Of a DNA stretch of 55,428 bases, positions 345 through 47,490 are shown one piece after another. Origin of the DNA: an uncultured Pseudomonadales bacterium (GTDB lineage Bacteria > Patescibacteriota > Microgenomatia > UBA1400 > MFAQ01). Made by a program: the position numbers and the translations under genes. The stretch spans positions 1 to 55,428 of the forward strand of contig CAZDXN010000003.1 in NCBI GenBank assembly GCA_964509695.1, given 5' to 3'. How positions within the stretch are numbered: the stretch's first letter is position 1; each line of letters opens with the position of its first letter. A model generated the notes under the pieces. That model was given only the letters and a program-made list of their open reading frames with translations. It had not been told where the DNA came from and did no database searches.

Positions 345-1652
345 TTATTTGAGGTCGAGGGAGATGAGATTGAAGACGTCGGGTTTTTGGTTGAGATTGG
401 AGAGGATGAGTAGATGACTGCCGTCGGCAGAAGAGGCAGCGAAGTTGCCGTTGATTTTGGCGGAAATGATGGGGGTTAGGTTGTTGTCGTCGTACTCGAC
501 GATGGAGATGCCATCGCCATTGCTAACGACGAGGTGACGGCTGGTGGAGTACCAACTGAGATTTCCGGTGGAATGAGGGTCGGTTTGACCACGAAGAAGG
601 TTGATTTGTTTCAGTATCGATGTTTGGGGAAGGCTACCATTGATGACCAGAGGTTGAGAGATTTTGGGATCAAAGTTGGCTTCTTTGATGAGGTAGTTAC
701 GGTCTTCTTTGAGATCGTAAATATAGGTTTTACCGGCGATCAGTTTTCTGGTTTCGGTGGTTGGATTAGTGCCTTGAATCACCTTGCCGATGAGATTATC
801 GGGGAGAATTTGATCTTCTTTGGCGGTATAGAGGAGCTTTTCACGATCCGGAGAGAAGTAGACGTTGACGGCAGAGGCGGTGGCGATTTTTTCCATCAGT
901 TCAGGAAGGCGAGTCAGGCTATTTTTGTTGACACTGGTCAGCTGCTCCTGCCATTGGGTGAGGATCAGAGTCAGTCTAATCGTCGCGTCTGCCAGAGTTT
1001 TGGTCTGGTTCATGTTTCGGGAGCTGAGGAGATGGGAGAAGGTGACTTTCTTGTCGTCGTGGAGGACGGCGAGGATCTGAGTGCCGTCGGGAGACCAGAT
1101 CAGTTCGGCTTTGGTGTAGTCGTAAACACTCATATCGGTGATCTGGACGATTTGATTGCCAAGAATAGTGTTGTTTCCTAGGGAAAGGACGTAGACGCCG
1201 TTGTCCTGACTGAAAGGTGAATTGGTGAGGACGTAGACGAGACGGTTTCCGTCGGGACTGACGAGCGGCTTACTCACTTGGTAAAAAGTAAGCGGGGTGC
1301 TGCTGGCGATAGCCGGAAAAAGGCGGGCGTCGGTGGAGCTGACAAGTTCGGATTTGATAGGGAAGGTTTTGGTCCAAGGATGAAAACCGGTTTTGATGAT
1401 CTTGATGGCGTAGTCGTCAGGAGAAAGGTAAAGAGTGTCGTCAGTGACGGTGGTGAGCCGGTCATTGATGAAGACCTGAGCGCCTTTGGGATATGAGGTT
1501 GTAGAAAGAAGTCCGGTGCCTTTGAGGGTCATTTTGCTGATATTAGGCCGATAGCCTTTGGCGATTCTGATGGCCAAAACGGTCCCGCCCACGAGAAGAA
1601 GGAAGGCGAAGATGGTGATGAGGAGGCGGTCGCGCTTGATGGACTTGGTCAT
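345..1652 (-). CDS. PEGA-domain membrane-anchored protein with TolB/WD40-like beta-propeller C-terminus
   Basis: N-terminal TM helix; PEGA-like TTSYPKGAQVFIND..YAIKIIKTGFHPW; SPDG repeats; TAAAAT -10 is 7 nt before the ATG. Confidence 0.8.
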   Translation of the reverse strand: MTKSIKRDRLLITIFAFLLLVGGTVLAIRIAKGYRPNISKMTLKGTGLLSTTSYPKGAQVFINDRLTTVTDDTLYLSPDDYAIKIIKTGFHPWTKTFPIKSELVSSTDARLFPAIASSTPLTFYQVSKPLVSPDGNRLVYVLTNSPFSQDNGVYVLSLGNNTILGNQIVQITDMSVYDYTKAELIWSPDGTQILAVLHDDKKVTFSHLLSSRNMNQTKTLADATIRLTLILTQWQEQLTSVNKNSLTRLPELMEKIATASAVNVYFSPDREKLLYTAKEDQILPDNLIGKVIQGTNPTTETRKLIAGKTYIYDLKEDRNYLIKEANFDPKISQPLVINGSLPQTSILKQINLLRGQTDPHSTGNLSWYSTSRHLVVSNGDGISIVEYDDNNLTPIISAKINGNFAASSADGSHLLILSNLNQKPDVFNLISLDLK

Positions 1653-1673
1653 AGGTATGATTTTACATCACTT

Positions 1674-2078
1674 TGTCATCGCGAGGAAATGAAATGACCG
1701 TGGCGATCCATATATAGCTCTCTCAAAACAAAATGTCGGTTTTATATGGTAATTCGCTATGTCATCCTGAACTTGTTTCAGGATCGATGCTGAAATGACC
1801 CTGAAATAAATTCAGGGTGACATTATTCAGCATGACATCTAGTTTTGAGGTTGCTATAGATTGTCATTCCGACCTCCGAGCCGGAATCTATCTGTATCAC
1901 CCCCGATCGAATACGATCTTCCCCCTCTTAAATTAAGAGGGGGTAAGGGGGTGATATGGATCCCGGATCCCCGAGGAAATACTCGGGACAGGCAAGTCCG
2001 GGATGACAGATGAATATACCTCACCCTTACGTCCCTCCCCTTGATAAGGGGAGGGAAAGAGGGAGAGGTGTGAGGGGG
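1674..2078. repeat. Nested palindromic repeat cluster upstream of mreB
   Basis: GTCATCGCGAG..GGCGATCC; GTCATCCTGAACTTGTTTCAGGATC..; 1862-2008 composite (near-identical to 54988-55130); CCCTCCCCTTGATAAGGGGAGGG element at ~2019-2075. Confidence 0.9.
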
Positions 2079-2096
2079 GCGTGTTAAAATGCAGCC

Positions 2097-3113
2097 ATGC
2101 GATTGAGATTGTCAAAAAGAGTGGGAATTGATCTGGGGACGGCCAACTGTCTGGTCTATGTCGTGGGTGAGGGAATTGTGATGGAAGAGCCGACGGTGGT
2201 AGCGGTTTCGCTGACGGACTCGAAGGTTTTGGCGGTGGGCAAGGAAGCGGAGGCGATGCTGGGGAGAACTCCCGGAAATATCAAGGCGAGCAAACCGATG
2301 CGGGATGGTGTGATCGCCGATTATGTCGTGACCGAGGCAATGATGAGGTATTTCCTGCGGAAGGTGGGAGCGGGCAACCAAATCTTCAAACCGGAGGTAA
2401 TGGTGTGCGTGCCGGCCGGTGTGACCCAGGTAGAAAGGCGCGCGGTCCTCTCGGCCACCATGAGTGCCGGGGCGAGGACAGCGTATTTGATTGAAGAACC
2501 CTTGGCGGCGGCGATTGGCGCTGGAGTGCCGATTGCGGAGGCCAGTGGAAATATGATTTTGGATATGGGGGGAGGTGCCAGTGAGGCGGCGGTTATTTCG
2601 CTCGGAGGAGTGGTCGCTTTCAAGAGTGTTAGAGTAGCTGGTAACAAAATAGATGAATCTATATCACGCTATGTCAGAAAGAAACATAATTTGGTGATTG
2701 GGGAGATTACGGCAGAAAGAATCAAAGTAAAAATTGGCAGTGCCACAAAACCGGTGAAGGAGGAGACGCTCGAAGTCACTGGCCGCGATAGCGTGACGGG
2801 ATTGCCCAAGTCAGTTGTGGTGACGTCCACGGACGTCTTTGTGGCGATTAGTGAACCGCTTTCACGGATTATCAATATGGTGAAGTCAGTGTTGGAAGAA
2901 GTGCCTCCAGAACTATCCAGTGACATCATTGATAAGGGGATTGTGATGAGCGGGGGGACGGCGACTTTGCGAAATTTTGACAAGCTTTTGACTGCCGAAA
3001 CAGGAGTTCCGGCCTTTGTGGCGGAGGATCCACTGAGGTGTGTAGTAAAAGGTACTGGGATAGCATTGGAAAATCTGGAGTTATATCGGCGAAGTGTAAC
3101 GGCGAATAAGTAA
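2097..3113 (+). CDS. mreB: Rod shape-determining protein MreB (copy 1)
   Basis: GIDLGTAN, PMRDGVIADY, IEEPLAAAIGAG, DMGGG, GNKID and GGTATLR actin-fold motifs. Confidence 0.97.
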   Translation: MRLRLSKRVGIDLGTANCLVYVVGEGIVMEEPTVVAVSLTDSKVLAVGKEAEAMLGRTPGNIKASKPMRDGVIADYVVTEAMMRYFLRKVGAGNQIFKPEVMVCVPAGVTQVERRAVLSATMSAGARTAYLIEEPLAAAIGAGVPIAEASGNMILDMGGGASEAAVISLGGVVAFKSVRVAGNKIDESISRYVRKKHNLVIGEITAERIKVKIGSATKPVKEETLEVTGRDSVTGLPKSVVVTSTDVFVAISEPLSRIINMVKSVLEEVPPELSSDIIDKGIVMSGGTATLRNFDKLLTAETGVPAFVAEDPLRCVVKGTGIALENLELYRRSVTANK

Positions 3114-3226
3114 GATTTCCTGTATATCAAGTTATTTTATGTCTATTATCAGTTGGTGAATTTGATTGCTATTTTGATAACTAGATTTGAATTTGAATAT
3201 TTACGAATGCGAAATATAGGGTTTAT

Positions 3227-3436
3227 TGGCGATCCATATAGATTGCCACATCGCGTACTCTCCCACGGGGATACGCGGGATCTGCGACTTGCAATGACGA
3301 GGCACCGTCATCGCGAGTGTATTCGCGTGGCGATCCATATAGATTGCTTCTCCCGCTAAGCGGGATCGCAATGACAGACCTCACCCTTACATCCCTCCCC
3401 TTGATAAGGGGAGGGAAAAGAGGGAGAGGTGTGAGA
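3227..3436. repeat. Palindromic repeat cluster (GTCATCGCGAG..GCGATCC/GATTGCTTC..GCAATGAC class plus CCCTCCCCTT class)
   Basis: AGATTGCTTCTCCCGCTAAGCGGGATCGCAATGAC also occurs at ~3762-3796 and 55135-55169; the CCCTCCCCTT element is identical to the one at 252-304. Confidence 0.9.
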
Positions 3437-3642
3437 GCGGTGATATGGGGAGGTACGGGGTTAAATTCAGTAGGAACCCCGTAGTCGATTCCCGCATACC
3501 ACTGGGGGTAGGGTAGGACGGTTTGCGGTAATTAAATTGTTGAGTAGGGGACGTAAGCCTAATTCGTGGCTACGTTGTTCGTGGAGCTTATCTTCGGAGA
3601 TTCTGGCTGTGCGTGGATACCCTTGCGGAGATGGACTTTGAC

Positions 3643-3796
3643 GTCATTGCGCCCGTCCGTCCTCTGGCGGAAGGAGCATTCGACGTGGCAATCTATGCAA
3701 ATAATCCTGGATCGTCACGCTACCGCTCGCGATGACGAGTTGACTCTTCGGAATGACATATAGATTGCTTCTCCCGCTTAGCGGGATCGAATGACA
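3643..3796. repeat. Palindromic repeat cluster (GTCATTGCG..GCAATCT / ..GCGATGAC class)
   Basis: GTCATTGCGCCC..GTGGCAATCTA, GGATCGTCACGCTACCGCTCGCGATGAC, AGATTGCTTCTCCCGCTTAGCGGGATCG. Confidence 0.85.
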
Positions 3797-4357
3797 AGGA
3801 GTGGTATTGGAGTTTTTTGTCATAATCAGAATATATCAGTTATTTGTATTGTATCGGTCTATTTACTTCTGACATTAGTTAAAAATTTATTTTCATAAAT
3901 ATATGTTTTGATAGAGTATATAGTTTCTGTCTAGTGATATTGATCATTGATTGCAGATTTTGTCTCGCGAAGCGAGATTTAGCTTTGATATTTGAGAACT
4001 TATTTTATTCGTAATTTACGATTTGATGCTGGAGAATTTAATTGTAGGAAGGAATATAGTATATTTATCATATTAGGTGACGGCCGTTCTATTAGAGGAT
4101 ATTGTTAAATATCTTATAGTGGTGATGATTTTTGCTTGTTGGTTGAGTAGAGTTGATTTTCGGACAGTTATTTCATGTAAGTGTCAGTAATCAGCGTGTG
4201 AAAACAGCCTAGGGAGTGAGTTTTCGGGATTGATCTATCGCTTAAAATAGGGAATTGGGTTGTTTAGCGGTTAGTGTACTCGAGTGATAGTTTTGAGGCT
4301 AAACGTTGATGGGGATAGGGATTCAAGATTTAGGATTCAGGATTCAGGAATTATGAG

Positions 4358-5224
4358 TTGCGTGTTCCTGATAAGATACTAGCATATATGGTGAAGAAAA
4401 TGGTTTTGGGGACGCGGGTGGATTTGGTCAGTCAGTCAGAGGCGGTGAATATGGTCTCCGGTTGGATTGAAGTCGGAGGCAAGACCAGAGTAGTAGCAAC
4501 GGCATATAGTGAATTCTTTGTGGCTGCGCTAGGCGACAAAGCCTTTAGAATGGCCCTAGAAGGCTCGGATTTGGTCACCCCTGATGGGATAGGGCCGCTG
4601 GCGGCAATCAGATACCAATTGCTCAGTGCTCAGTGCTCATGGACCATTTGTCATTTGTTAACTGGTTTTAGAGTTGGGGTGGATATTTTGAGAGGGCGGG
4701 TGGGTCAGCCGGTATCCGGATATTGGCTGTTTGAGACTTTGGTAGCGAAAGCGGCCAAGGAGGGCTGGTCGGTGTTCTTGCTGGGAGGATTTGGAGAGAC
4801 GGCGGAGAAGCTTGCACAAAAACTCGAAACTGAAAAAACTCGAAAACTCAAAGTAGAATATGAGGGGGGGGCGCGGAATGAGGCGGAGATGACTGGTGAG
4901 GCAAATGAGGTGGTGATTGAGAAGATAAACAAATTCAAGCCGGATCTGTTGTTTGTGGCCTACGGTCCGGTGAAGCAGGAGAAGTGGTTGGCGGAAAATA
5001 AAGGGAAGTTGAGGGTGAAGGTAGCGATGGGAGTAGGTGGGACGTTTGACGAGGCGCTGGGGTTGGTTCGGGAAGCCCCTGTTGCATTCTCCAAATATGG
5101 TCTAAAATGGTTTTGGCGGCTCCTCCAACAGCCGCAGCGATTGCCCCGTATATTCAAAGCTACCTTTGTGTTTGCTTGGTTGGTCTTTGTCGATTCGCTA
5201 AAAAATAAGAATTTACGAAACTAA
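4358..5224 (+). CDS. WecB/TagA/CpsF family glycosyltransferase (start may be ATG 4388)
   Basis: LVTPDGIG, VFLLGG, INKFKPDLLFVAYGPVKQEKW, MGVGGTFD and GLKWFWRLLQQPQR motifs; carries two short tandem-repeat inserts. Confidence 0.92.
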   Translation: MRVPDKILAYMVKKMVLGTRVDLVSQSEAVNMVSGWIEVGGKTRVVATAYSEFFVAALGDKAFRMALEGSDLVTPDGIGPLAAIRYQLLSAQCSWTICHLLTGFRVGVDILRGRVGQPVSGYWLFETLVAKAAKEGWSVFLLGGFGETAEKLAQKLETEKTRKLKVEYEGGARNEAEMTGEANEVVIEKINKFKPDLLFVAYGPVKQEKWLAENKGKLRVKVAMGVGGTFDEALGLVREAPVAFSKYGLKWFWRLLQQPQRLPRIFKATFVFAWLVFVDSLKNKNLRN

Positions 5225-5246
5225 GAAGTTAGGAATCTACGAATTT
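5207..5246. repeat. Degenerate 8-mer tandem array (AAGAATTT ACGAAACT AAGAAGTT AGGAATCT ACGAATTT)
   Basis: Period-8 array between convergent genes; same family as the array at 42397-42428. Confidence 0.75.
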
Positions 5247-5484
5247 ATTTGGAGATGGGGTTTATTCCGAGCATCCACAGGACGCTTTCTTTTTTGTAGC
5301 GACGGTCGCCGCGGGAGTTGATGCGGATGGCGGGGAGCTTGCCACGCTTGCCCCAGCGCTTGATGGTGAGGGTGGAAACGCGCAGAAGAGTGGCGACTTC
5401 GGAGACGGTCAGCAGGTCGGGGAGGTTGGCGAGATTGACTTCTTGCTTGCCAGCAGGCGGGTCTTTTTTTTCGTTATTGTCCAT
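5245..5484 (-). CDS. Helix-turn-helix DNA-binding protein (MerR/excisionase-like HTH_17)
   Basis: LLTVSEVATLLRVSTLTIKRWGKRGKLPAIRINSRGDRRY. Confidence 0.9.
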   Translation of the reverse strand: MDNNEKKDPPAGKQEVNLANLPDLLTVSEVATLLRVSTLTIKRWGKRGKLPAIRINSRGDRRYKKESVLWMLGINPISK

Positions 5485-5508
5485 ATCTGATATACAAGTT
5501 ATCAGATA
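5484..5508. promoter_or_regulatory. Inverted repeat (putative operator) over the HTH gene start
   Basis: TATCTGATA-N7-TATCAGATA perfect 9-bp inverted repeat between divergent genes. Confidence 0.5.
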
Positions 5509-5533
5509 GGTTATAGAGAGTCAATGGGGTAGA

Positions 5534-7642
5534 TTGAAGATGGGAGACATGTGGTTAAATGAGAGTATGTCAGTGGGTGATGAAAGAGATCCGGAAGTTA
5601 TACAGGTTGGTTCTGGTTTGGTGCGAGTTGAAGCGGGTTTGGTGTTTGATAAAGAAGCTGAATTAAGGAAGACGGTTCTGGCTGAATTGTTGCGCTTAAA
5701 AGTAGTCTCAATTGATGAAAGTCGATTACCTGGCGGCATTATCGTTGATAATCTTAATTTCTTTCGGGGTAAATCGATGGCGAAAGACTCGGATTCGGGT
5801 GAAGATTTGACTGTGTTTGAAGTAATGGAACGGGTCCCTGCGCCAATGAAAAACGGATTGGGAGGTCAAGACTCACAGAAAAATTACTATCACGTCTTTC
5901 GGGACCAGATGGTGGCGACGGAGGAGGATCTAAAGAATGGAGTTGGTGCGAGAGAGATGTTTTTTACCTTGAACGACGCTGCGGATTTGAAAAACCCTGG
6001 TCGATTGAGAGACTATAAGGGGAGGTTTTACTTACTTCTGTCAGAGTTGGGAGGAGAATTTGACGTGAGAAATAATTTTCAGCCGACCAAGAATGAGGGT
6101 TTCGATTCTGGAGTGGATTCTTTTGCGGCCAACGTTTTGGCGATGATATATATTTTGGGTGAAGGAGAACGTGATGAAGACGGGGCGCTTTGGGTAAATA
6201 AGACAAGTGGTGATAGTGCGGAAACACAGAAATTGTCCGGCAGCTGGTTGGCAAGAATGGGTTTTAAATCGTATAGTGGTTTGAAGTGGAGGGATCAACC
6301 GAGAGAGTTGATTGCCAGATACGGCAAAAGTATACCTAATGGAATGTTGAGTGCCGAGGATTTTTCCGACAGAACAAGAGAAAAAATGATCGTAGGCACT
6401 AACGGTCAATTGGTGGTTGAGAATACTAGGATATTTTTTGGACGCAATCGCCTGGGTTACCAAGCGGTCAAAATTTCTAGTGACGGAACGTATGTATTAT
6501 TGAGTCCTGCTGATGCAAAAGGCCAGAGGGCGGTTGACGGGGTGTTCAGAGCCGGTCGGGTGGGGGGAATAATAACGCGACCCAATGTGGTCGAGGGGAA
6601 AGTAATCGGTATGAGGGGGGGGAGTTATCAGGAACGAAAATTACAACCTAGGATAGTAATTCGGCGATATGACGGAGAAGGGAAGGTCCATGCTTGGAGG
6701 GTTGACAGTAAGGTTGCCGCTAGCGGACTACTGAAGCTAAGAGAACGTTTGAAGAAAATCGATCCTACGGTATTACCAAAATTGGATTCGTTACCGTATG
6801 AGAGGCAGCTTTTTTTACTTCACGGTTACATGCAGTTGAATGAGGTTGACAGAGGGAAGTTTGAGGGTGGTTTGGTCAGATGGTCCTCTACCCAGATTGA
6901 GGCAAAATCATATTTGGCTCAGTATAGCGGTTTGGCGACAGTGACCGAGGCGGGTCAAGTTGACGCCAGTTATTGTAAAACAGTCGGACTCTTGCGTAAC
7001 TTTCGACATGTGGTTGAGGGCGAGATAGGTGATGACAGCGAGCCACAAAATCGGTCGCTAATTGAGTTTATAGCTAGGATTACCGAGAGTGTGGCATTTC
7101 GGACGGGGACACTCTTAAGTAAGGTAACCGTTGAGAATGAAGAGGTGGTTCGGGCTGAAATGGATAAATTAAATGGTTTGCTATTGGCGATGGAGTCTTC
7201 GGTGGTGGATTTTGACAAAAAGAATGGATTGAGAAAGACAGCCATATTACGGGACGATAAGGGAGTTGTCTCTAGTATCACGGTTCATCAAAAATTTGGA
7301 TCTCAAGCTGGTGCGGATGAATTGTTTATTACATTTCGACCGGAAAGAAATGATGGCTTAGTAACCAAAGGGGGTGGGCATCCCAGAATTGGTATGACGT
7401 TTAGAAATACTACGGGGAGTTTTAATTTGCGAGTTGACCTAGACAAAAATGGTCTTTCGGTGGATGTTGGTAGTCATAGCGGTGAATTTGCCGGACAAAT
7501 GGCTAAGGCTGGCTTGACACACTATACATATGGAATTATTGACCCGGGTTATCAGAGCCTATTTGGTGCCTACGTTAAGAGGCTGGCTCAGATTTGGGGA
7601 GTTTCTGAATCCACGTGGACACGATCTCGCGGTGTTCAGTAG
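5534..7642 (+). CDS. Hypothetical protein (702 aa)
   Basis: Long uninterrupted ORF with normal amino-acid composition; no family recognised. Confidence 0.8.
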   Translation: MKMGDMWLNESMSVGDERDPEVIQVGSGLVRVEAGLVFDKEAELRKTVLAELLRLKVVSIDESRLPGGIIVDNLNFFRGKSMAKDSDSGEDLTVFEVMERVPAPMKNGLGGQDSQKNYYHVFRDQMVATEEDLKNGVGAREMFFTLNDAADLKNPGRLRDYKGRFYLLLSELGGEFDVRNNFQPTKNEGFDSGVDSFAANVLAMIYILGEGERDEDGALWVNKTSGDSAETQKLSGSWLARMGFKSYSGLKWRDQPRELIARYGKSIPNGMLSAEDFSDRTREKMIVGTNGQLVVENTRIFFGRNRLGYQAVKISSDGTYVLLSPADAKGQRAVDGVFRAGRVGGIITRPNVVEGKVIGMRGGSYQERKLQPRIVIRRYDGEGKVHAWRVDSKVAASGLLKLRERLKKIDPTVLPKLDSLPYERQLFLLHGYMQLNEVDRGKFEGGLVRWSSTQIEAKSYLAQYSGLATVTEAGQVDASYCKTVGLLRNFRHVVEGEIGDDSEPQNRSLIEFIARITESVAFRTGTLLSKVTVENEEVVRAEMDKLNGLLLAMESSVVDFDKKNGLRKTAILRDDKGVVSSITVHQKFGSQAGADELFITFRPERNDGLVTKGGGHPRIGMTFRNTTGSFNLRVDLDKNGLSVDVGSHSGEFAGQMAKAGLTHYTYGIIDPGYQSLFGAYVKRLAQIWGVSESTWTRSRGVQ

Positions 7643-8414
7643 CCGTATTTTCCCAGAGAATCTCGAACAGATCGGAAAAGGTGGCACTGATCGGAACACT
7701 GTCGATAATAGTTGAGATAATTTTGCCTTTGAGGGAGGTAATGGCTACTTTTGAGCCATAGACGATAATTTGTGAGGGAAGGAGGTACTTGGGGTTTTGG
7801 GTGATATGTCTTTCGACGAGCCTATCTTGGTCGTGAAATAGGTAGTTATTTTTGGTGTCGTCTTCTAGGGGAGTAATGGTGCGGGTATGGATATCCAACT
7901 TTATTTGAGCTCTTATTTGTTCATTGATGATTGAGTTTAATTCTTGGTTTTTGTCGTCTAAGACTGAACGGAAAAGGAGAAGATTTTTGGCTAATTTGTT
8001 TATGTCCTTGTACGTTTGTTTTATCCCCTCCAGCCCTTCAAATGAGCTAATTATCGGTCTGATTTCGGTCAGACGGTATGCGCTCTGGAGGTCGGGGAGG
8101 ATGTTTTCGAGATTGGTTTTGGCGGCTTTGGCCTGAAGCTGGATTTGCTCGGAGAGGTCGAGGAGGATGTCTGGTGAATTGGGGGTGAAAGTCGAGGCTT
8201 TGCCCGCCTTTGGCGAGGCATCGCCGGCGAGGCTGGATTTGACCAGCCCGAGTTTGGCAAGCTCCTGACTGACGGTGTAGACGTAGGTTCTTTTGACATT
8301 GGTGGACTTGGCTAGCTGGCTGGCAGATTGGGGTCCGTGGCGGAGGAGGGAGAGATAGATACTTGTCTGGTCGGCGCTCAAATTGAGGCTTTGAAGAAGT
8401 TCTTCCGGTTTCAT
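7575..8414 (-). CDS. TrmB family transcriptional regulator
   Basis: N-terminal wHTH (IYLSLLRHGPQSASQLAKSTNVKRTYVY), FEGLEGIKQ and PLD-like QIIVYGSKVAI; TTGACT-17-TATAGT promoter. Confidence 0.88.
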   Translation of the reverse strand: MKPEELLQSLNLSADQTSIYLSLLRHGPQSASQLAKSTNVKRTYVYTVSQELAKLGLVKSSLAGDASPKAGKASTFTPNSPDILLDLSEQIQLQAKAAKTNLENILPDLQSAYRLTEIRPIISSFEGLEGIKQTYKDINKLAKNLLLFRSVLDDKNQELNSIINEQIRAQIKLDIHTRTITPLEDDTKNNYLFHDQDRLVERHITQNPKYLLPSQIIVYGSKVAITSLKGKIISTIIDSVPISATFSDLFEILWENTATEHREIVSTWIQKLPKSEPAS

Positions 8415-8486
8415 CTACTTCTACTATATGTAAATACTTTCTGACAGTCAAGAGGTGGTTGAGGCTATATTTACTGTCAGGGGGAC

Positions 8487-8515
8487 TTGACAAAGCCCAT
8501 AACATATGTTATATT
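8487..8515 (+). promoter_or_regulatory. Sigma70-type promoter with a palindromic operator in the spacer
   Basis: TTGACA (8487-92), 17 bp, TATATT (8510-15); palindrome ATAACATATGTTAT at 8499-8512. Confidence 0.75.
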
Positions 8516-8521
8516 ACCGAT

Positions 8522-8897
8522 TAATTGATGATTTCTGAATCGTCAAAGTACATTTACATTCGAGTCGGACAACTGATCTTTAGCAATAAGGATCAAAAGG
8601 GGAAAGTTCTTAGCCTTGGTAGGTTGAGAGCAAATACCGCGAAAGTTGCTAATTGACCCACGGGTCGAGGTGCGACGATCGAGACTAATTCAACCGGAAG
8701 CCAATCTGCTTCTGACTCGGGGGAACCCGATCATCAGGAAAGAGAAGCCGAAGGTTACCACAGACACAACAATCCCGCCTCATCTTTTCCTGTCCCTATC
8801 CTACCTGTCCATTTCGCGCAAGCGATTTTAGGTGAGAAGAGATTATGGCGAAGATGGTGGGATAAAGAGCATGAGAAATCGTACTTTTTATCCCACG
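8522..8897 (+). ncRNA. Candidate structured ncRNA (~375 nt), family unknown
   Basis: Follows a strong promoter; several hairpins with GNRA/CACG loops; long-range helix 8560-69 with 8711-20; final hairpin 8857-69 with 8884-96; no SD-led ORF. Confidence 0.55.
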
Positions 8898-8929
8898 GTA
8901 TATCCGGCGCGAATGTTTCTCGTTATCCT

Positions 8930-8957
8930 TGTCATTCCGGACTTGATCCGGAATCTA
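8930..8957. repeat. Half palindromic element TGTCATTCCGGACTTGATCCGGAATCTA
   Basis: Same class as 189-214, 1862-1890 and 13173-13201. Confidence 0.85.
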
Positions 8958-9138
8958 TATAAATAATTTCCCAAAAAGATTGGTTGCCCGATTCGAACAG
9001 TACCTTAAAAAGTCAATTTTCTCTTTTCTTCTTTCGGAAGAACCCGGGCCGCGTGTTATCTGCGCGCCCGGGATTCTCCGGAAAAATCGATGTTTTTTAA
9101 TGCCCCAGCTGGGGCGGCCGCTAAGGAGGCGGTTTTTG

Positions 9139-11418
9139 ATGAAAGCATACAATTTTGTTCGCGGCCATTTGACAGATGGCCTCGCATTAACGACCGATGA
9201 AAAACTCGGTCGAATTGTATTTCTCGGCGAGGTCGGCCGGGGCCGACGCTATGAGAAAGTGGCGTTGGACCGGCATAACCCGCCGGCGGTGGTAGATGGA
9301 CGCGTGCTGGATTGCCAGCCGCGTAAAGTCACCCTCCAGCCGAAAGACGGGAAGCCCGAGAAGATTTTTTACGTTCTCGAGCAGTCCCGCGGTGGTTCGG
9401 ACGCAGTTTTGGTCCGAATTTTTACCGAGGGGACGTACACAAAGAACACCCGTGGGCGTTGGCAAACGATTGCGGGGAATCCCGAGACCATCATCTCGGG
9501 GTACGGCGCCTACGGCGACGCCGGCCGAATTGGCAACTGGGATGATGGCCTCGTCCTCATGCGCCCGGGAGACGTAGTGAAAGTCACGTTATCCGGGGGC
9601 TCGAAGTTTGAGCCGTATGCGATTTGGTTCAATGATGGCGCCCCCCAATGCGCCACTTGGAAAGAGTACGAGACCCTGACCGCGGTCACTTCGGCGCAAG
9701 CCGAGGCGTCCGGGTCGGGTCTCAAAATTCTTTTCGGCCAAATGCCAACCTTCACTTGGTCTCACGGCAAAGTTGAGCCGGGGATCAAGTTGGCCAAGGG
9801 CCTGACGGGCCCGATGGTGTCGTTAGGTGAATCCGGCCGGGGGCGCACCTTGACCGAGGTGCCTCTGGTCAACTACCCCGTCGAGGGGAAGTTGATCGAG
9901 GCGGCCGTAGCCGTCCTCAAAGAGGAAACCAAACCTTCCCGTTATCCCGGGGGTGAGCCGGAGACGAAAGTCTCTTACGGCTTGACCCAAGGGGCCGCGA
10001 AGGAAGCTGGTTCTGGTTTCCTAGTCAAAGTCTCGAGCTCGTGGGTTTATACCCGTGGGTCGAGTCCGGAGATCTCTGCCTGGAAAGGTAACTCGACTTT
10101 TCTGGCGGAAGGCCGGGGGGCTGAAGGCGATGCTGGCCGGATTTATGATTGGCCGGAAATCCTCGTTGTCCTCCATGAGGGTGACGTTCTTTTTATCCGT
10201 CCGGAAGGCGGATACAAAGTTCGTTCATACACCCTCTTCGTAAAAAACGGTCAGTTGAAAACTGAGCCGTGGGTGACCTGGAAGGTTGAAGACGCGAAGC
10301 GCGACCCCGAGTTCTATGTCGCTAAGGGAACTGCGCCTTCGGCGGGGCTTGTGCCCGCCGAGTGGATTGGGAGGGTCGTTTCCGTCCAGGTCCTCGAGAA
10401 TAGTCGCGATCAAGGCGATCATCTCGAAGAAAAACAGGTCGGTGAGGTCATTTCCATTTCGCCCTTGGTGTTGAATCTGGGGTGGGACGGTCAGGACCGC
10501 TACGACGTGACGATCAATCAGGCGACCTGGGTCCGCCTCGAGAGGGACAAGAAAGTAGTCCGACTCGGAGGCGAAGCCGCCGAAAAGCGGCAGTCGCTTC
10601 GGGCGAGGTTGGAACAGTTGATGGTCGAGGCTGGACAGGCCTTGGCCAAAAGCTACACCTCTCTGGCCAGCGAGGAACTGCGGAAGGAATTGTACGACGC
10701 TTCCCGCAGTTATTACTGGACGCTCGACACCCTGCCCACCGAGGGATGGGGGAATACGATCAGTGCTTTCGTCGAAAAGGCCGAAGCGACCCTGAAGCAA
10801 TTCCGGGAAGTTGAGGCCGAACTTCAAGCCCGCGAAGCGGCCGGAAAGTCGGGTGAAATGATGCCCGATTACCGCGTCCGCCTTGGTGGGTCGAAAAATG
10901 GCCGAGCCGTGGAAACGGCTTGGGCTATTTTGCCGGATGGTTCGACTGTGACCCCGAAAGGGGATTACGGCGAAGCCATTTTCGGCGATTTGACCCCGAC
11001 GGCGCTCGTAGTGACTCATCTCGAGTCCAACTACGGCTACCGCTACTCGGAGGCCTGGATCGTCGCTCATCTGCCCGCCAAGGTGACCGAGGCCCAGAAG
11101 GCCAAGGTTGTCGAGTTGGGGCAAACCGCCCACAAGTACTTCGTGGGCGGCAAGACCGGCTGGGACCTCGCCGAAAAAGAGGTCTACTTCCAGACCGCCT
11201 ACGACCGGGACTTCCGGACGGAGGAGGAGTTAGCGGCCAATCGCGAGATGACGGCCGCCTTCCCCATTGATTTGGGGATCTGGAAAGTAATGCGTTCCTG
11301 CGAGTCCGGGAAGCGCACGGTCTGGGCAGAACGCCGGACCGAGGGCGATTCGAATCGCCCGAGTGAGGTGATGGCGATGGCCTTCAAAGCGGCCGTGGCC
11401 AAGCGCCTCGATGACTAG
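9139..11418 (+). CDS. Hypothetical protein (759 aa) with a tandem-duplicated ~200-aa domain
   Basis: AAGGAGG SD before ATG 9139 (preferred over the track's GTG 8980); GxGAxGDAGRIxxW motif twice, 204 codons apart. Confidence 0.85.
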   Translation: MKAYNFVRGHLTDGLALTTDEKLGRIVFLGEVGRGRRYEKVALDRHNPPAVVDGRVLDCQPRKVTLQPKDGKPEKIFYVLEQSRGGSDAVLVRIFTEGTYTKNTRGRWQTIAGNPETIISGYGAYGDAGRIGNWDDGLVLMRPGDVVKVTLSGGSKFEPYAIWFNDGAPQCATWKEYETLTAVTSAQAEASGSGLKILFGQMPTFTWSHGKVEPGIKLAKGLTGPMVSLGESGRGRTLTEVPLVNYPVEGKLIEAAVAVLKEETKPSRYPGGEPETKVSYGLTQGAAKEAGSGFLVKVSSSWVYTRGSSPEISAWKGNSTFLAEGRGAEGDAGRIYDWPEILVVLHEGDVLFIRPEGGYKVRSYTLFVKNGQLKTEPWVTWKVEDAKRDPEFYVAKGTAPSAGLVPAEWIGRVVSVQVLENSRDQGDHLEEKQVGEVISISPLVLNLGWDGQDRYDVTINQATWVRLERDKKVVRLGGEAAEKRQSLRARLEQLMVEAGQALAKSYTSLASEELRKELYDASRSYYWTLDTLPTEGWGNTISAFVEKAEATLKQFREVEAELQAREAAGKSGEMMPDYRVRLGGSKNGRAVETAWAILPDGSTVTPKGDYGEAIFGDLTPTALVVTHLESNYGYRYSEAWIVAHLPAKVTEAQKAKVVELGQTAHKYFVGGKTGWDLAEKEVYFQTAYDRDFRTEEELAANREMTAAFPIDLGIWKVMRSCESGKRTVWAERRTEGDSNRPSEVMAMAFKAAVAKRLDD

Positions 11419-11427
11419 TGTCTTTCT

Positions 11428-11468
11428 GGGGTGGCGGGTTTGTAACCCGCCACCCCAATTCTATTTTT
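11428..11468 (+). terminator. Intrinsic terminator-like hairpin
   Basis: GGGGTGGCGGGTT-TGT-AACCCGCCACCCC followed by AATTCTATTTTT. Confidence 0.7.
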
Positions 11469-11537
11469 CTGAAAGAAGAGGAGAGAATGTGTTCGATTGA
11501 AGTAGTTTCGTTTTGCCTGCCTGTGAAGCTTGACCCT

Positions 11538-11576
11538 GGACAGGAATCAGGTGACGCAGGCGGATAAGACGAAATT
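11538..11576 (+). repeat. 39-bp direct repeat, copy 1
   Basis: GGACAGGAATCAGGTGACGCAGGCGGATAAGACGAAATT. Confidence 0.9.
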
Positions 11577-11795
11577 AATGCCCCAGACGTAATAGTACCT
11601 TTCGATTTTATGTTCGAAGGGGATGTTGAGACGCGATAGGGTGAGTCCTGTTGCACTTTGGTAGGTATCAATAAGCCCCCAAACCAGATTGATGGATTCG
11701 ATATAAATGTTGCCCCATTTTATTTGATCGTCTTCGATACCATCGGGGATTGGGAAGACGTCTTGATCAATATCTTGAGATTCTCTTGAGGTCAT
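11547..11795 (-). CDS. Hypothetical protein (82 aa)
   Basis: Overlaps the stop of the upstream ORF (ATGA); its own stop codon is supplied by the 39-bp repeat. Confidence 0.5.
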   Translation of the reverse strand: MTSRESQDIDQDVFPIPDGIEDDQIKWGNIYIESINLVWGLIDTYQSATGLTLSRLNIPFEHKIERYYYVWGINFVLSACVT

Positions 11796-12196
11796 TTCAT
11801 CTCATCTAGGGGGAGATCTATCTCGTCAGCGACCTGCTGGAGTTGATTCCCCGAAAAGATTCGGAAGTGGGGTTGGTCGAGTTGCGATTCTCTCAGTTGT
11901 TGAATGGTTTTTTGCCGTTTTTCGCCTTTGGTTTCAAGTTCTTCAGTAAGCAACCTGTAGGTGACTTCGTCAAAGTCCTTGGTTATTTCTCGAGTTAGCT
12001 CGAGAAATTTCTCCATAAGGGGATAATCTATGACATCAATTTTGGATAAATCAAGACCAGAAACGTTACTTGGAAGTTTTGGGATCTTTTGGTCTTCGAG
12101 CTGTTCTATGACCTTTGATGGTCTAACCGCGGCGGATCGATGGACAGTGGAGATAATGTCACTGATGTCATCAATTGCGTGGTCGGGACGGCTCAT
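11792..12196 (-). CDS. Hypothetical protein (134 aa)
   Basis: TATATT -10 is 6 nt before the ATG; protein-like composition. Confidence 0.7.
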   Translation of the reverse strand: MSRPDHAIDDISDIISTVHRSAAVRPSKVIEQLEDQKIPKLPSNVSGLDLSKIDVIDYPLMEKFLELTREITKDFDEVTYRLLTEELETKGEKRQKTIQQLRESQLDQPHFRIFSGNQLQQVADEIDLPLDEMK

Positions 12197-12231
12197 GGTT
12201 TGAATATAACATCAAATAGGGCCATAATTTC

Positions 12232-12270
12232 GGACAGGAATCGGGTGACGCAGGCAGGTAAGACGAAATT
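12232..12270 (+). repeat. 39-bp direct repeat, copy 2
   Basis: GGACAGGAATCGGGTGACGCAGGCAGGTAAGACGAAATT. Confidence 0.9.
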
Positions 12271-12286
12271 GGGGTATAAAGATAGT

Positions 12287-12790
12287 ATGAGAGAAGCTCA
12301 AGAGAGGATGACGATGAGTCCAAAGGAAAGAATTGATGGTCTGGTTCCGTCTGAGAAGAGGAAGCTAACACATACAATTGTGCATGAAGCGGGGCATGCC
12401 GCAAAGGCAATTTTATTGGGACTAAGAGTTTCCGGATACGTTATTGGAGATTATGGGTGGGGAGACCAGGGTGCTTATAAAAAACCGAAAGGAGTCGTAG
12501 ATGGAAAAGTAATTTTAAACCAAGCTATAGGTGAGACGGACTGGGAAAGGAAATTGAAAATGTCTGCAGCCAGTGGTGCGGCAGCAGAATTGGTGTATTT
12601 TGGATATATTAACTCCACTGCAGGTCAACAAAAGGTTGACCGTTTGACTGGGAATTTTCGTTCCTATAGAGAGATTGATGAAATGGCCAATAAAATTGCT
12701 GATGAACTTGAAGCGAGTGAGATTTTTTATGAGTGTATCCGAAGGATGGCGAGAGGCGAGGCCCTTGATGATTTGAGTGTGAAAACCTGA
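12287..12790 (+). CDS. Stand-alone M41 (FtsH-type) metallopeptidase-like domain protein
   Basis: IVHEAGHA zinc motif and SGAAAELVYFG third-ligand helix; TATAAA is 6 nt before ATG 12287. Confidence 0.75.
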   Translation: MREAQERMTMSPKERIDGLVPSEKRKLTHTIVHEAGHAAKAILLGLRVSGYVIGDYGWGDQGAYKKPKGVVDGKVILNQAIGETDWERKLKMSAASGAAAELVYFGYINSTAGQQKVDRLTGNFRSYREIDEMANKIADELEASEIFYECIRRMARGEALDDLSVKT

Positions 12791-12794
12791 CCTT

Positions 12795-12865
12795 GGACAG
12801 GAATCGGGTGACGCGGGCGGACCTGCTGAAAGCCAAGGCATTCAGGCGGGCGGGTAAGACGAGAT
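12795..12865 (+). repeat. 39-bp direct repeat, copy 3, interrupted by a 33-bp hairpin insertion
   Basis: GGACAGGAATCGGGTGACGCGGGCGG[ACCTGCTGAAAGCCAAGGCATTCAGGCGGGCGG]GTAAGACGAGAT. Confidence 0.88.
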
Positions 12866-12913
12866 GGAGTGGGTTTTTGACAAATGGGATGGGGGTGGCT
12901 ATATTATCGGATA

Positions 12914-13381
12914 ATGAGCGAGAGAATAAGAAGATTTAAGGCGGGGGAAGCGGGGAAAAGTCTGATGTCGTTGATGGCGGGGGAAATTGGTTTTGGGGAA
13001 CCGTTTGAGGATGTCAGTTCTCAGTTGGAGGCGTTGGACGAGATACAAAGGAAGTCCTTGGTCCTACTGGTGGCCTGTGACAGAATTTATGGATTTTTTG
13101 AGAATCGGGTTGGGATGGCCAATGGGCCACGTTTGGTGAAGCTGGTTCGCGACTTGGCCGGTGATCTTCATCTGTCATTCCGGCCCCCGAGCCGGAATCT
13201 AGACGAAATCGATGTCTCCAAAGAAGAGGCGAGAGCGTATTATGATGAGCTCGTGCGAATAGGCGCGATGGAATATATGGGCGAACTTGGTAGAAAGGAT
13301 GTTTTTTGCACGATTTGGGAATGTATCAACAAGATGGTGGGCGAGGAGGAATCAACTTTGGAAGAAGCCTTGCGACCTTAG
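12914..13381 (+). CDS. Hypothetical protein (155 aa) with an in-frame palindromic half-element
   Basis: TTGACA-17-TATATT promoter 8 nt before ATG 12914; TGTCATTCCGGCCCCCGAGCCGGAATCTA at 13173-13201 reads LSFRPPSRNL. Confidence 0.75.
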   Translation: MSERIRRFKAGEAGKSLMSLMAGEIGFGEPFEDVSSQLEALDEIQRKSLVLLVACDRIYGFFENRVGMANGPRLVKLVRDLAGDLHLSFRPPSRNLDEIDVSKEEARAYYDELVRIGAMEYMGELGRKDVFCTIWECINKMVGEEESTLEEALRP

Positions 13382-13387
13382 CCAATA

Positions 13388-13416
13388 AAAAGCCCCCCGC
13401 AGTGCGGGGGGCTTTT
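13388..13416. terminator. Bidirectional terminator
   Basis: AAAAGCCCCCCGC-AGT-GCGGGGGGCTTTT between convergent genes. Confidence 0.85.
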
Positions 13417-13443
13417 CCAAACAATTGTGTGTGGTGTGCCGAG

Positions 13444-14277
13444 TTACTTCGGCGTCGCAGGGGCGGGAGGGGTGGCCTTACGAATGGCCACCATGAGATT
13501 TTGCTGGATCTCATCCCAGTCGGTGCTAAAATCGTCAACTTCATCACTCAAGCGAGTTGTTTCGCTGTCGATCATGCTGACGATGGCGAAGTACTGCTGA
13601 GCCAGTTCGGTTGAACTGAACATGGCGGTCGATAGTTCGAACGAAGCGACCTTACGCTTGATGATCGTCAGGTTTGCCAGCTTGATCAGGTCGATGGCGC
13701 GCGCCAGATTGGCATATTCGCCGATCTTGCCTACCTTGGATACGACACTGGCAGGAGCAGTAGAAGTCCCGCCGGCGCGACGCAGGCATTCGATCGCCTC
13801 GCGGTTCCAGGCGTAGATAGCGTTGGTGTTGAGGCCCATGAACTTCAGGTCGTTGACCATGGAGTTCAAGACGTCGACCGCCTTTTTGGTGACGTAGAGC
13901 CGCTGGATTTCAAGCATAACCTCTTTGTTTGGTTGGAAGCCTTCGGTTTTGACGTTTTCCTCACCGAAGTCTGAGGCAGGAACGGAGAAGAGATTGGTCC
14001 AGTCACGGGCTTCAACGATACATGCGAAGGCGTAGGCCATGTTGGCCACCAGATCCCCATCGTATCCCGGGTAGGGGGTCAGAGTAATGGTGGTTGGGGC
14101 ATCTTCGCGGTACCCGTACCTGGCCACCCCGGGATTTAGGTCATCGTTGACGACTAGGTGCCAGATGGCTGAACGTTTTTCCTTGGTGGTGGTGATACGC
14201 ACCGAGACGATGCGAAGATCTATTTTCACCTCGAGTTCTGCTTTCACAATTGTTGGAATATCAAAGAGCTTGGACAT
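13444..14277 (-). CDS. Hypothetical protein (277 aa) with a helical C-terminal half
   Basis: Strong SD AAGGAGGT before ATG 14277 (preferred over the track's 14547). Confidence 0.75.
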   Translation of the reverse strand: MSKLFDIPTIVKAELEVKIDLRIVSVRITTTKEKRSAIWHLVVNDDLNPGVARYGYREDAPTTITLTPYPGYDGDLVANMAYAFACIVEARDWTNLFSVPASDFGEENVKTEGFQPNKEVMLEIQRLYVTKKAVDVLNSMVNDLKFMGLNTNAIYAWNREAIECLRRAGGTSTAPASVVSKVGKIGEYANLARAIDLIKLANLTIIKRKVASFELSTAMFSSTELAQQYFAIVSMIDSETTRLSDEVDDFSTDWDEIQQNLMVAIRKATPPAPATPK

Positions 14278-14410
14278 GGATACCTCCTTTAGGGGTTGTC
14301 CGGTAGGAAAGGAAGAAAGTACCGCCGCTGTTGACGGATTGGGGAGATGATAGCCTATATATAGTAGATATGCAAACTGGGGGCGGAAAAAGGGGAGAGT
14401 TCTACCTCTT

Positions 14411-14461
14411 GGTAATACTGATTTGACAGGTAGTATTACTTTGGGATACAGTAGTATTACT
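14411..14461 (+). promoter_or_regulatory. TA promoter with repeated operator boxes
   Basis: TTGACA 14423-28 and TACAGT 14447-52; GTAGTATTACT direct repeats at 14430-40 and 14451-61. Confidence 0.65.
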
Positions 14462-14728
14462 ATGGTGGGAACTTCGACAGTTACTTCAAAGGGGCAGGTG
14501 ACGATACCTATGTCTATTCGGGAGTATTTGGACATTAAGGCTGGCAATAAGGTTTATTTTGAAGCTGTATTGAACCCTAGAAGTGTGAAAGTAAGTAAGT
14601 CGTCTGGCAGTACTGTGGATGAGATTGCCGGATCACTTCATTCTGACGTCGGCTATGTGGACTTAAATGTAGTTCGCGAAAAGGTAGCCAAGGACATAGC
14701 TGCATATTATGCCAAAAGGTCGAGATAG
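14462..14728 (+). CDS. AbrB/MazE/SpoVT family antitoxin (VapB-like)
   Basis: STVTSKGQVTIPMSIREYLDIKAGNKVYF. Confidence 0.92.
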   Translation: MVGTSTVTSKGQVTIPMSIREYLDIKAGNKVYFEAVLNPRSVKVSKSSGSTVDEIAGSLHSDVGYVDLNVVREKVAKDIAAYYAKRSR

Positions 14729-46927: not shown

Positions 46928-47490
46928 AGGTTGATTGGCGAGAGGCCGTTTTCAGTTTCGCACAGGATTTGGCCCTTTTGTTCGATAATCCGGTCAGTGA
47001 AGAGGATGCCGTTGAGGTGATCGATTTCGTGCTGGATGTAGGCGGAGGAGACGTCACTGAATTCTTCAGTGACAGTTGACAGTTGACAGTTGACAGTTGA
47101 CAGTATGGGTATTTGGTATTGGAGTTTGATGGAGTAGGGACGGTCGACGAATCCCCAGATCTTGGGGATGGAGAGACAGCCTTCGAGCCAGCGGTCCTTC
47201 TTCTTTTTGTAGACGGAGCTAAGCATTTTCTGACTGATGGTGATGATTTCGGGGTTAATGAAGACCTTGGTGGTTTGTCTTTCCTCATCAAGGAGAATAA
47301 AGAGGCGTTTGTCGAGGCCAACTTGAGTGGCGGCCAGACCAACGCCCTTGGGATTGGTGGTGTGTTTGAGGATTTCTGCCATTTGGGCCACTTCTTTGGC
47401 GGTTTTCTTGTCCCAACCACGAATAGGCTTGGCCTTGTGCTTTAGGAATGAATGGGGTGTAGTCAGAATCTGCATATGGTCAGTTTTCAT
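46924..47490 (-). CDS. def: Peptide deformylase
   Basis: GVGLAATQVG, EGCLSIP and QHEIDHLNG; (GACAGTT)n insert at 47071-47105. Confidence 0.97.
   Translation of the reverse strand: MKTDHMQILTTPHSFLKHKAKPIRGWDKKTAKEVAQMAEILKHTTNPKGVGLAATQVGLDKRLFILLDEERQTTKVFINPEIITISQKMLSSVYKKKKDRWLEGCLSIPKIWGFVDRPYSIKLQYQIPILSTVNCQLSTVTEEFSDVSSAYIQHEIDHLNGILFTDRIIEQKGQILCETENGLSPINL

Follow-up and report, generated by a model that had tools for sequence, protein, structure and literature searches.

Large folded RNAs outside the translation machinery are rare in bacteria, and OLE, ROOL, GOLLD and the HEARO/omega RNA each brought unexpected biology. The candidate phyla radiation (CPR), or Patescibacteria, holds a large share of bacterial diversity in tiny genomes, and its RNA level is almost unexplored. 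Here we describe a conserved structured RNA encoded on contig CAZDXN010000003.1 (assembly GCA_964509695.1), a 55,428-nt stretch of DNA from an uncultured member of the Patescibacteriota that we refer to as the window. The RNA lies on the plus strand, begins near position 8522 (between 8520 and 8523) and extends to at least position 9001, a span of at least 480 nt. It is non-coding, stands behind a near-consensus promoter, has its two ends joined by a long stalk, and is linked to a divergent gene for a TrmB-like regulator and to a palindrome positioned as an operator would be. We are highly confident that this conserved structured RNA is real, and we rate it as a member of a new CPR/Patescibacteria family of large (~0.3-0.6 kb), highly structured non-coding RNAs; a literature search found no description of a large CPR RNA or of a TrmB-linked RNA.

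The window RNA can be compared with the large ornate RNA classes described in bacteria (PMC12286853, PMC5737381). Like OLE, ROOL, GOLLD and raiA, it is several hundred nucleotides long, has many covarying helices and GNRA-type loops, belongs to one lineage and has a function that is not deducible from sequence; strong expression would be a further trait in common. The likeness to OLE, ROOL and GOLLD is limited to size and complexity. The window RNA gives no Rfam match to any of the four classes, comes with its own divergently encoded transcription factor, has its ends joined by a stalk, shows no tie to phages or tRNA clusters, and has an interior that is far more variable between lineages than that of OLE or ROOL.

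A different likeness is to Tn916 canT, Bacillus EAR and HK022 putL/putR, which are promoter-proximal structured RNAs that head operons with hairpin-plus-U elements between the genes. The canT element is of similar size, a 452-bp fragment that causes processive antitermination in cis on heterologous terminators (PMC11658703), and the put RNA of HK022 acts on RNA polymerase by itself (PMC9378689). None of these elements is homologous to the window RNA, and the window locus is chromosomal and syntenic rather than part of a conjugative element or phage; moreover, its hairpins are not clear terminators, and only the position of the RNA is compatible with such a role. Turning to the ends of the RNA, helices of ~20 bp bracket rRNA precursors as RNase III processing stalks, and bacterial RNAs are stabilised by 5'-terminal hairpins. 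By analogy with rRNA precursors and 6S RNA, the window locus may represent a structured RNA that is flanked by a ~20-bp helix within a longer transcript and has a co-transcribed protein gene, but the enclosed RNA matches no Rfam model, and cleavage at its stalk would have to be presumed. Short length and many dispersed copies characterise Correia-type elements. Those of Neisseria share with the window element terminal inverted repeats, a short flanking direct repeat and a long hairpin in the mRNA leader when transcribed, but the window element is single-copy and locus-specific, is ~440 nt long and has a complex, covarying interior.

The evidence for the RNA begins with its promoter, TTGACA-17-TGnTATATT (8487-8515, plus strand), which has 11 of the 12 consensus positions plus the TG extension and contains the palindrome ATAACATATGTTAT in its spacer. 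This promoter, noted as TTGACA-17-TATATT in a preliminary description of the locus made from the sequence alone, is kept in L018, L023, L024, L026, L031, L032 and L033 (L numbers denote the other loci compared; the homologues lie on CPR/Patescibacteria contigs). Folding of the segment 8520-8900 gives -127.6 kcal/mol; its z-score is -5.2 for the plus strand versus -0.75 for the minus strand, and the whole unit 8522-9001 has z = -8.0 on the plus strand. The loci most similar to the window form type A (window, L018, L019, L031, L032 and L033), while L023, L024 and L026 constitute type B and L034-L036 type C. An RNAalifold consensus of the six type A sequences contains 105 pairs, with 95.9% of the cells paired; 20 pairs are altered on both sides versus 1-4 when partners are slid by 1-3 columns, and none of 500 shuffles reaches the observed values. 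The numerous conserved G-U pairs would be A-C mismatches if read from the opposite strand, and the orientation of the promoter agrees with a plus-strand RNA. The claim of a structured, non-coding, plus-strand RNA holds, and the homologue collection proposed along with it yielded the compensatory changes. A 61-aa open reading frame (ORF) with a TTG start (8646-8831) had been raised as another possible cause of conservation. It contains in-frame stops or frameshifts in all five type A relatives and so cannot account for the conservation, and no further ORF is common to these relatives.

The 5'-terminal hairpin P1 (9 bp; 8525-8533 with 8538-8546, plus strand) lies exactly where it was first placed, is 100% paired with two pairs altered on both sides, and is also found in type B and type C relatives. 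Downstream of P1 is the box GUACAUUU (8548-8555, plus strand), one copy of a G(U/A)ACYUU direct repeat found on both sides of the stalk; the 3' box, GUACCUU (9000-9006, plus strand), was read from the sequences. A box matching the 5' box stands after the stalk in all type A-C loci, and L015, a locus without the RNA, has one copy. The closing stalk itself, P2, pairs UUCGAGUCGGACAACUGAUC (8559-8578, plus strand) with GAUUGGUUGCCCGAUUCGAA (8978-8997, plus strand), and in the window 19 of its 20 positions pair, including three as G-U, with one A-C mismatch. Over the eight sequences of types A and B, the stalk is 94.4% paired with six pairs altered on both sides, compared with none or one double change in slid controls, and 0 of 500 shuffles attain its covariation score. 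Within type A the 5' strand is almost invariant, with one change (in L032), and on the 3' strand 7 of the 10 positions opposite G or U vary, 6 of these still wobble-paired, versus only 2 of the 10 positions opposite A or C (one-sided hypergeometric p ~0.035). This pattern of 3'-strand changes is the one left when selection acts on a helix of a plus-strand RNA. The A-C mismatch, at stalk position 11 (8569 with 8987), is kept in the window, L019, L032 and all of type B, and is a normal A-U pair in L018, L031 and L033.

The stalk alters two points of the preliminary description. The size of ~375 nt given there places the 3' boundary about 100 nt short of the at least 480 nt found here, and the 10-bp long-range helix proposed between 8560-8569 and 8711-8720, a rival of the covarying stalk for the same 5' strand, pairs at 4 of 10 positions in L031 and has lost part of its partner in L032. 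Several other interior helices fared better. The hairpin at 8575-8594 has compensatory support in homologues, GACC/GGTC becomes CCCGC/GCGGG in L018, TCGGG/CCCGA becomes CUGGG/CCCAG, CGC/GCG becomes UGA/UCA and UAU/AUA, and the long 3' hairpin (16 pairs; 8858-8874 with 8879-8895, plus strand) is 100% paired with two pairs altered on both sides. GGAAGC/GCTTCT is supported too, albeit weakly. Four sequences share the proposed helix CAGGAAAG/TTTTCCTG unchanged and two lack it. GGTTGA/TCAACC is unsupported, with 3-4 of its 6 pairs kept in relatives, and the suggested pseudoknot GGTAGG/CCTACC must be abandoned, as its changes are non-compensatory and it clashes with a covarying helix.

The interior of the type A RNA consists of a variable 5' domain (8575-8746, plus strand), with hairpins at 8575-8594, 8606-8632, 8640-8650, ~8655-8666, 8696-8713 and 8717-8730, and a conserved 3' core (8747-8895, plus strand). 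L031 lacks most of the variable domain, and in L032 other sequence takes its place. The covariance model R1, built from the core, scores each of the six type A members at 127-177 bits and finds no second copy in the window and no match in 29 other loci or in 80 viral loci. The core includes a 21-nt CA-rich stretch, CACAGACACAACAAUCCCGCC (8759-8779, plus strand), which is predicted to be single-stranded and is identical in four of the five relatives (L032 differs). At up to three mismatches it occurs once in the window, and the window has no complementary site that could serve as a target in trans. Two CCUGUCC boxes follow (8789-8795 and 8804-8810, plus strand), and CUGUC(C) boxes are present in two to four copies in all subtypes. 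Three intergenic spots just 3' of the downstream gene for a 759-aa protein (11538-11576, 12232-12270 and 12795-12833) carry a 39-nt direct repeat, GGACAGGAATCrGGTGACGCrGGC..TAAGACGAAAT, the first 9 nt of which, GGACAGGAA, are the exact complement of UUCCUGUCC in the first CCUGUCC box; this complementarity could reflect chance or a target site. The segment AAUCCCGCC of the CA-rich strand (8771-8779) may pair with GGUGGGAUA in place of UAUCCCAC, the hairpin partner that pairs there (8856-8864, 8888-8896), which hints at a conformational switch. Covariation is uninformative on this point because no relative has a change in the hairpin segments, and only L032 has one in the CA-rich segment, with the pairing retained as a U-G wobble.

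Between the core and the stalk is a variable spot that holds a hairpin similar to repetitive extragenic palindromic (REP) elements, TGTCATTCCGG...CCGGAATCTAT (8932-8960, plus strand; repeat family D3). The hairpin is missing in L018, L019, L031 and L033, and its family (TGTCATTCCGG..CCGGAATCTAT) is dispersed in the genome, with further copies at 156, 1862, 13173 and 54988. Two Logan contigs of the same organism break at this hairpin inside the RNA locus. The REP-like hairpin probably lies outside the functional RNA.

The sole constant protein neighbour of the RNA family is the divergently oriented regulator gene, which in the window encodes a 279-aa TrmB-like winged-helix protein (7575-8414, minus strand; Pfam TrmB PF01978, E 4e-10). 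Homologues of the regulator form 25 clusters, all with PF01978. Each RNA recovered is divergent from a TrmB homologue, tblastn places such a homologue next to every RNA found, and the RNA has retained this position although the regulators are only 34-58% identical. The regulator gene has a promoter-like site of its own, TTGACT-17-TATAGT (8423-8451, minus strand), with the same layout in L031 and L032. Near the two promoters is the palindrome TGTCA-N8-TGACA (8475-8492), which overlaps the -35 hexamer of the RNA promoter in the window and in the other type A loci. Among 16 distinct TrmB loci, 15 have the pattern TGTCA-N8/9-TGACA between the divergent promoters, versus 1 of ~120 unrelated loci with the pattern, and the window has two matches versus 0.09 expected per 55 kb. 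The palindrome is the putative operator of the TrmB-like protein, the binding of which would repress the RNA. The only other match in the window, TGTCA-N9-TGACA at 50266-50284, stands within a region of GACAGTT tandem repeats (47071-47104, also listed as 47057-47104, and 50260-50293).

The homologues were reached mainly through this regulator. Twelve genome loci with homologues of the 759-aa protein gave no sequence match to the RNA in a first nhmmer/blastn pass. In L015, which holds the closest metagenomic homologue of that protein (64% identity), the RNA is missing upstream; a WecG gene, a promoter and a short leader stand directly before the homologue. These results moved the search to the regulator. 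As a search anchor, the 702-aa protein encoded on the far side of the regulator gene gave only two homologues among 5.8 billion proteins, both on short contigs. Homologues of the TrmB-like protein have 600-1060 nt of non-coding DNA upstream in almost all loci read, and with nhmmer the window RNA was matched in L018, L019 and L020 at E 1e-86 to 1e-90, where the regulator is 58% identical. A scan of metagenomes for the promoter pattern led to three further RNAs (L026, L031 and L032), and the L033 RNA was reached through another regulator homologue. The promoter/palindrome pattern is not specific to the RNA, which was present at three of the seven scan matches; at the other four (L027-L030), the pattern precedes protein genes or short non-RNA sequence.

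Beyond type A, the ends of the RNA and its surroundings are shared and its interior is not. Types B and C and L021 retain the promoter (in type B almost base for base), the 5' hairpin, a linker like CUUUAACAUU, the stalk, the post-stalk box and CUGUC(C) boxes. Their stalks are 20-25 bp long and differ in sequence, the box after the stalk is of the ACUUUGA type, and their interiors are not alignable with type A. The TrmB-divergent regions in L003, L007, L008 and L037 are long and non-coding too. All 11 regions tested fold far better than dinucleotide shuffles, with z from -5.6 to -12. We define the proposed family by a TrmB-divergent promoter with TGTCA-N8/9-TGACA, a 5' hairpin, a boxed end-joining stalk and internal CUGUC(C) boxes; the window has all of these, and they are common to L018, L019, L031, L032, L033, L023, L024, L026 and L034. 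Two further observations come from these loci. L026 carries a c-di-GMP-II riboswitch (12630-12714, plus strand; 55.8 bits against a gathering score of 53.5) ~4.5 kb downstream of its type B RNA, and at the most distant TrmB locus (L037-L039, ~2629-3246, minus strand) the first gene past the structured region encodes a Csx3-like protein (PF09620).

The preliminary description could not match the RNA to known families, and neither could the Rfam 15 library of 4227 covariance models. At the gathering score, only five tRNAs were found in the window, and at E<=10 the region 8350-9200 gave only chance-level matches (mir-3155, viral pseudoknots, snoU13), none of them on the plus strand of the RNA; across 15 homologous loci there was no match to the RNA. 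Bacterial RNase P RNA is present in one copy per genome and has a conserved core, including the P4 helix with conserved regions CR-I/CR-V. Its models gave no match at E<=10, and the interior of the window RNA is unrelated between lineages, unlike a universal ribozyme. The hallmark of tmRNA is a tRNA-like domain plus a tag-peptide reading frame; ARAGORN calls six tRNAs and no tmRNA in the window, and Rfam gives no tmRNA match. Group I and group II introns have a catalytic core (P3-P7 or domain V) and are inserted within a host gene, whereas this element is intergenic with its own promoter and matches neither Intron_gpI nor Intron_gpII at E<=10. Retron RNAs are closed by inverted repeats a1/a2 and adjoin a reverse-transcriptase gene. 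A closing inverted repeat is present here, but the neighbouring ORFs scanned (348-14547) contain no RVT domain. Riboswitches and T-boxes combine a ligand- or tRNA-binding aptamer with an expression platform ahead of functionally coherent genes; no aptamer model matches, and the downstream genes are unrelated between loci. Miniature inverted-repeat transposable elements (MITEs) have many dispersed copies, terminal inverted repeats and target-site duplications, and the window element has arms and flanking repeats, but it occurs once in 55 kb and nowhere outside TrmB loci among 159 loci. An association with phages was set aside, as neither the promoter pattern nor the core 21-mer has viral matches, and viral 15-mer matches are ascribed to chance because R1 finds nothing in them. 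TIGR-Tas arrays occur in the CPR, but they are short tandem guide arrays unlike this RNA.

How might such an RNA work? The reading that we favour, which is partly inferred and which we hold tentatively, as possible rather than probable, is that it is gated by the regulator, freed from the operon transcript at the stalk, and acts by binding a protein. The TrmB-like regulator would gate both the RNA and its own gene through the operator at 8475-8492, and, with no other promoter visible, transcription from the RNA promoter would run on into the genes that follow. The P2 stalk, with about 15-20 bp and conserved single-stranded G(U/A)ACYUU boxes on both sides, may be a processing stalk like those of rRNA precursors, and cleavage there would release a stable, end-protected RNA. 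The freed RNA could then bind protein via its CUGUCC boxes and CA-rich strand and serve as a scaffold or sponge, and not as an mRNA leader alone. Repression by the regulator, processing at the stalk and protein binding are all steps that we infer. Several observations weigh against this proposal. The RNA is always directly upstream of co-oriented genes, and a purely cis-acting leader would look identical. No RNA-binding protein can be named; the 702-aa and 759-aa proteins encoded nearby lack any recognisable domain, and neither of the two accompanies the RNA at every locus. The interiors of the subtypes are so different that a single shared partner is not obvious. At L022 the regulator and promoter are retained and a protein gene replaces the RNA. 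The transcript ends and the processing at the stalk are themselves predicted.

A bolder proposal is that the window RNA founds a class of large, trans-acting, ornate RNAs specific to CPR/Patescibacteria, a class with a transcription factor of its own whose members are cut out of an operon transcript and have an interior that is modular and evolves fast. Such an RNA would have a structural or catalytic role, or would organise proteins, in connection with the lineage-specific 'dark matter' proteins encoded around it. We consider this wider proposal doubtful. The retention of a ~0.5-kb RNA with its own regulator and a consensus promoter in a streamlined genome suggests that it likely matters to the cell. 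The RNA family also offers a handle on neighbours without known domains, the 759-aa family (84 clusters) and the 702-aa family, plus a 496-aa methyltransferase, and with the promoter, operator, regulator and stalk defined to the nucleotide the system is directly testable.

The main alternative mechanism is that the RNA stays on the operon transcript as a giant cis-acting leader that controls the downstream genes, either by processive antitermination or by masking of a ribosome-binding site. In the antitermination variant, RNA polymerase would be made resistant to the hairpin-plus-U elements before each gene, as with HK022 put, Bacillus EAR and Tn916 canT. We regard this as unlikely, though a substantial possibility, and it draws on the architecture of the locus. 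At every locus the RNA stands next to the promoter and has the orientation of the genes after it, and in the window no promoter-like site occurs between 8516 and the ATG at 9139, which means that the 759-aa gene must be transcribed through the RNA. The conserved leader before that gene (9007-9138, plus strand) comprises a polypyrimidine tract, two hairpins, one long (9032-9084) and one small and GC-based (9102-9115), with a U run between them (9093-9098), and the Shine-Dalgarno sequence AGGAGG (9124-9129), and a leader of ~120 nt with the long hairpin and subsequent U run recurs before successive unrelated downstream genes in the window, L031, L032, L015, L019 and L033. There is precedent for a leader of similar size in canT (PMC11658703), and for such a leader in HK022 put (PMC9378689). 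As a lead only, CCGCCUC in the core (8774-8780) has its complement, GAGGCGG, in the Shine-Dalgarno region (9125-9131). Against these points, a terminator scan calls no leader hairpin as a sense-strand terminator, since the U run begins well past the GC stem. The same leader precedes the 759-aa homologue in L015, where the RNA is lacking, and it is thus a separate module. RNA polymerase is conserved, and an RNA that binds it should have retained a core shared by the subtypes, yet their interiors are unrelated, and the end-joining stalk and flanking boxes have no role in a leader. An inverted partial copy of the leader, TTCTGAAAGAAGAGGAGAGAATG (11467-11489), follows the terminator hairpin of the 759-aa gene, which makes this gene look like a cassette bracketed by inverted polypyrimidine/polypurine boxes.

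The preliminary description had raised the idea of a ribonucleoprotein of the RNA with the 759-aa protein, the product of the first gene of the RNA-headed operon (9139-11418, plus strand; ATG at 9139). Homologues of this protein form 84 clusters, all from the CPR where named (Patescibacteria group, Falkowbacteria, Uhrbacteria), and contig JACPEU010000062 (assembly GCA_016183355.1) encodes an identical 759-aa protein together with an identical TrmB-like protein. The AlphaFold2 model (predicted local distance difference test score, pLDDT, 83.5) has two tandem, duplicated beta-rich domains, which carry the conserved motifs GRGRR and GDAGRIG, together with a long helical hairpin and, at the C-terminus, a beta domain. 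The protein has no match in Pfam, NCBIfam or the PDB, and because Foldseek searches of the PDB and of viral models also gave none, the modelled fold may be new. The idea keeps some appeal from these motifs and from the frequency with which the two genes co-occur, as 759-aa homologues lie downstream of the RNA or of a TrmB homologue at seven loci (window, L031, L033, L003, L006, L007 and L008; in the last four the TrmB homologue was located by tblastn). We nevertheless judge it improbable. It is contradicted by L015, whose homologue lacks the RNA, and by L019, L021, L023, L024, L026, L032, L034 and L037, which have the RNA or an RNA-like region and no 759-aa homologue in the DNA fetched. Nor does the protein track RNA subtype, and no RNA-binding fold was identified in it. 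The 759-aa protein is thus a frequent but optional member of an operon whose downstream genes differ between loci, with unrelated genes following the RNA in several.

It is also conceivable, although we think it quite improbable, that the locus is the relic of a mobile insertion, MITE-like in its terminal inverted repeats and target-site duplication, and that RNA structure is a by-product. The stalk strands would then be the inverted repeats of 15-20 bp at the ends of the element, the G(U/A)ACYUU boxes its flanking direct repeat of ~7 nt, and L015, with its single box, an empty site; insertion of REP-like hairpins within the element would fit as well. However, the element is single-copy in the window, with no copies elsewhere among the 159 loci and none in viral contigs, and its 3' arm does not match the 5' arm at up to three DNA mismatches, because the differences are wobble-compatible transitions. 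Its place beside the regulator has been held across the divergence of the regulators, the many compensatory changes in internal helices indicate selection on the RNA fold, and conservation of the flanking boxes across fully diverged interiors indicates that the boxes themselves are under selection. Finally, a highly divergent version of a known RNA (RNase P RNA, tmRNA, 6S RNA, a group I/II intron, a riboswitch or a retron msr-msd) or a small protein gene is extremely improbable: the size is near that of RNase P RNA or tmRNA and CPR RNAs are often divergent, but even at E=10 the plus strand of the RNA has no match to an Rfam 15 model, nor do its homologues match any, ARAGORN finds no tmRNA, the neighbours scanned have no reverse-transcriptase domain, the interior differs between lineages as that of a housekeeping RNA would not, and the ORF is not conserved.

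The wider neighbourhood follows a conserved order, namely WecG, an HTH_17 protein, a large protein, TrmB on the opposite strand, the RNA and the downstream genes, and this order is syntenic in the window, L018, L026, L031, L032 and L033. The large-protein slot, which in the window holds the gene for the 702-aa orphan protein (5534-7642, plus strand; convergent with the regulator gene), always encodes a protein of 450-855 aa, either from a weak family with the C-terminal region 'IRLDLD..G.SLD.G' in common or a 496-aa S-adenosylmethionine (SAM) methyltransferase. The predicted structure of the 702-aa protein is poor and has no structural match, and a profile-profile comparison of the 759-aa and 702-aa proteins found no match. 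Sequence searches of the neighbours with PADLOC, NCBIfam, Pfam and the PDB recovered only TrmB, a generic HTH_17/excisionase-like protein, WecG, MreB and the SAM methyltransferase; genes nearby in the window include those for MreB, the WecG/TagA glycosyltransferase and ribosomal proteins. Elsewhere in the window, ARAGORN calls a tRNA-Leu(aag) of 96 nt (22369-22464), on which the Rfam tRNA model is silent at the gathering score; its unusual length may reflect an insertion or a long variable arm. Another hairpin repeat that is dispersed, CCCTCCCCTTGATAAGGGGAGGG with a purine-rich tail, is present at 240-304, 2007-2071, 3367-3431, 39758-39822, 46270-46334 and 50528-50561.

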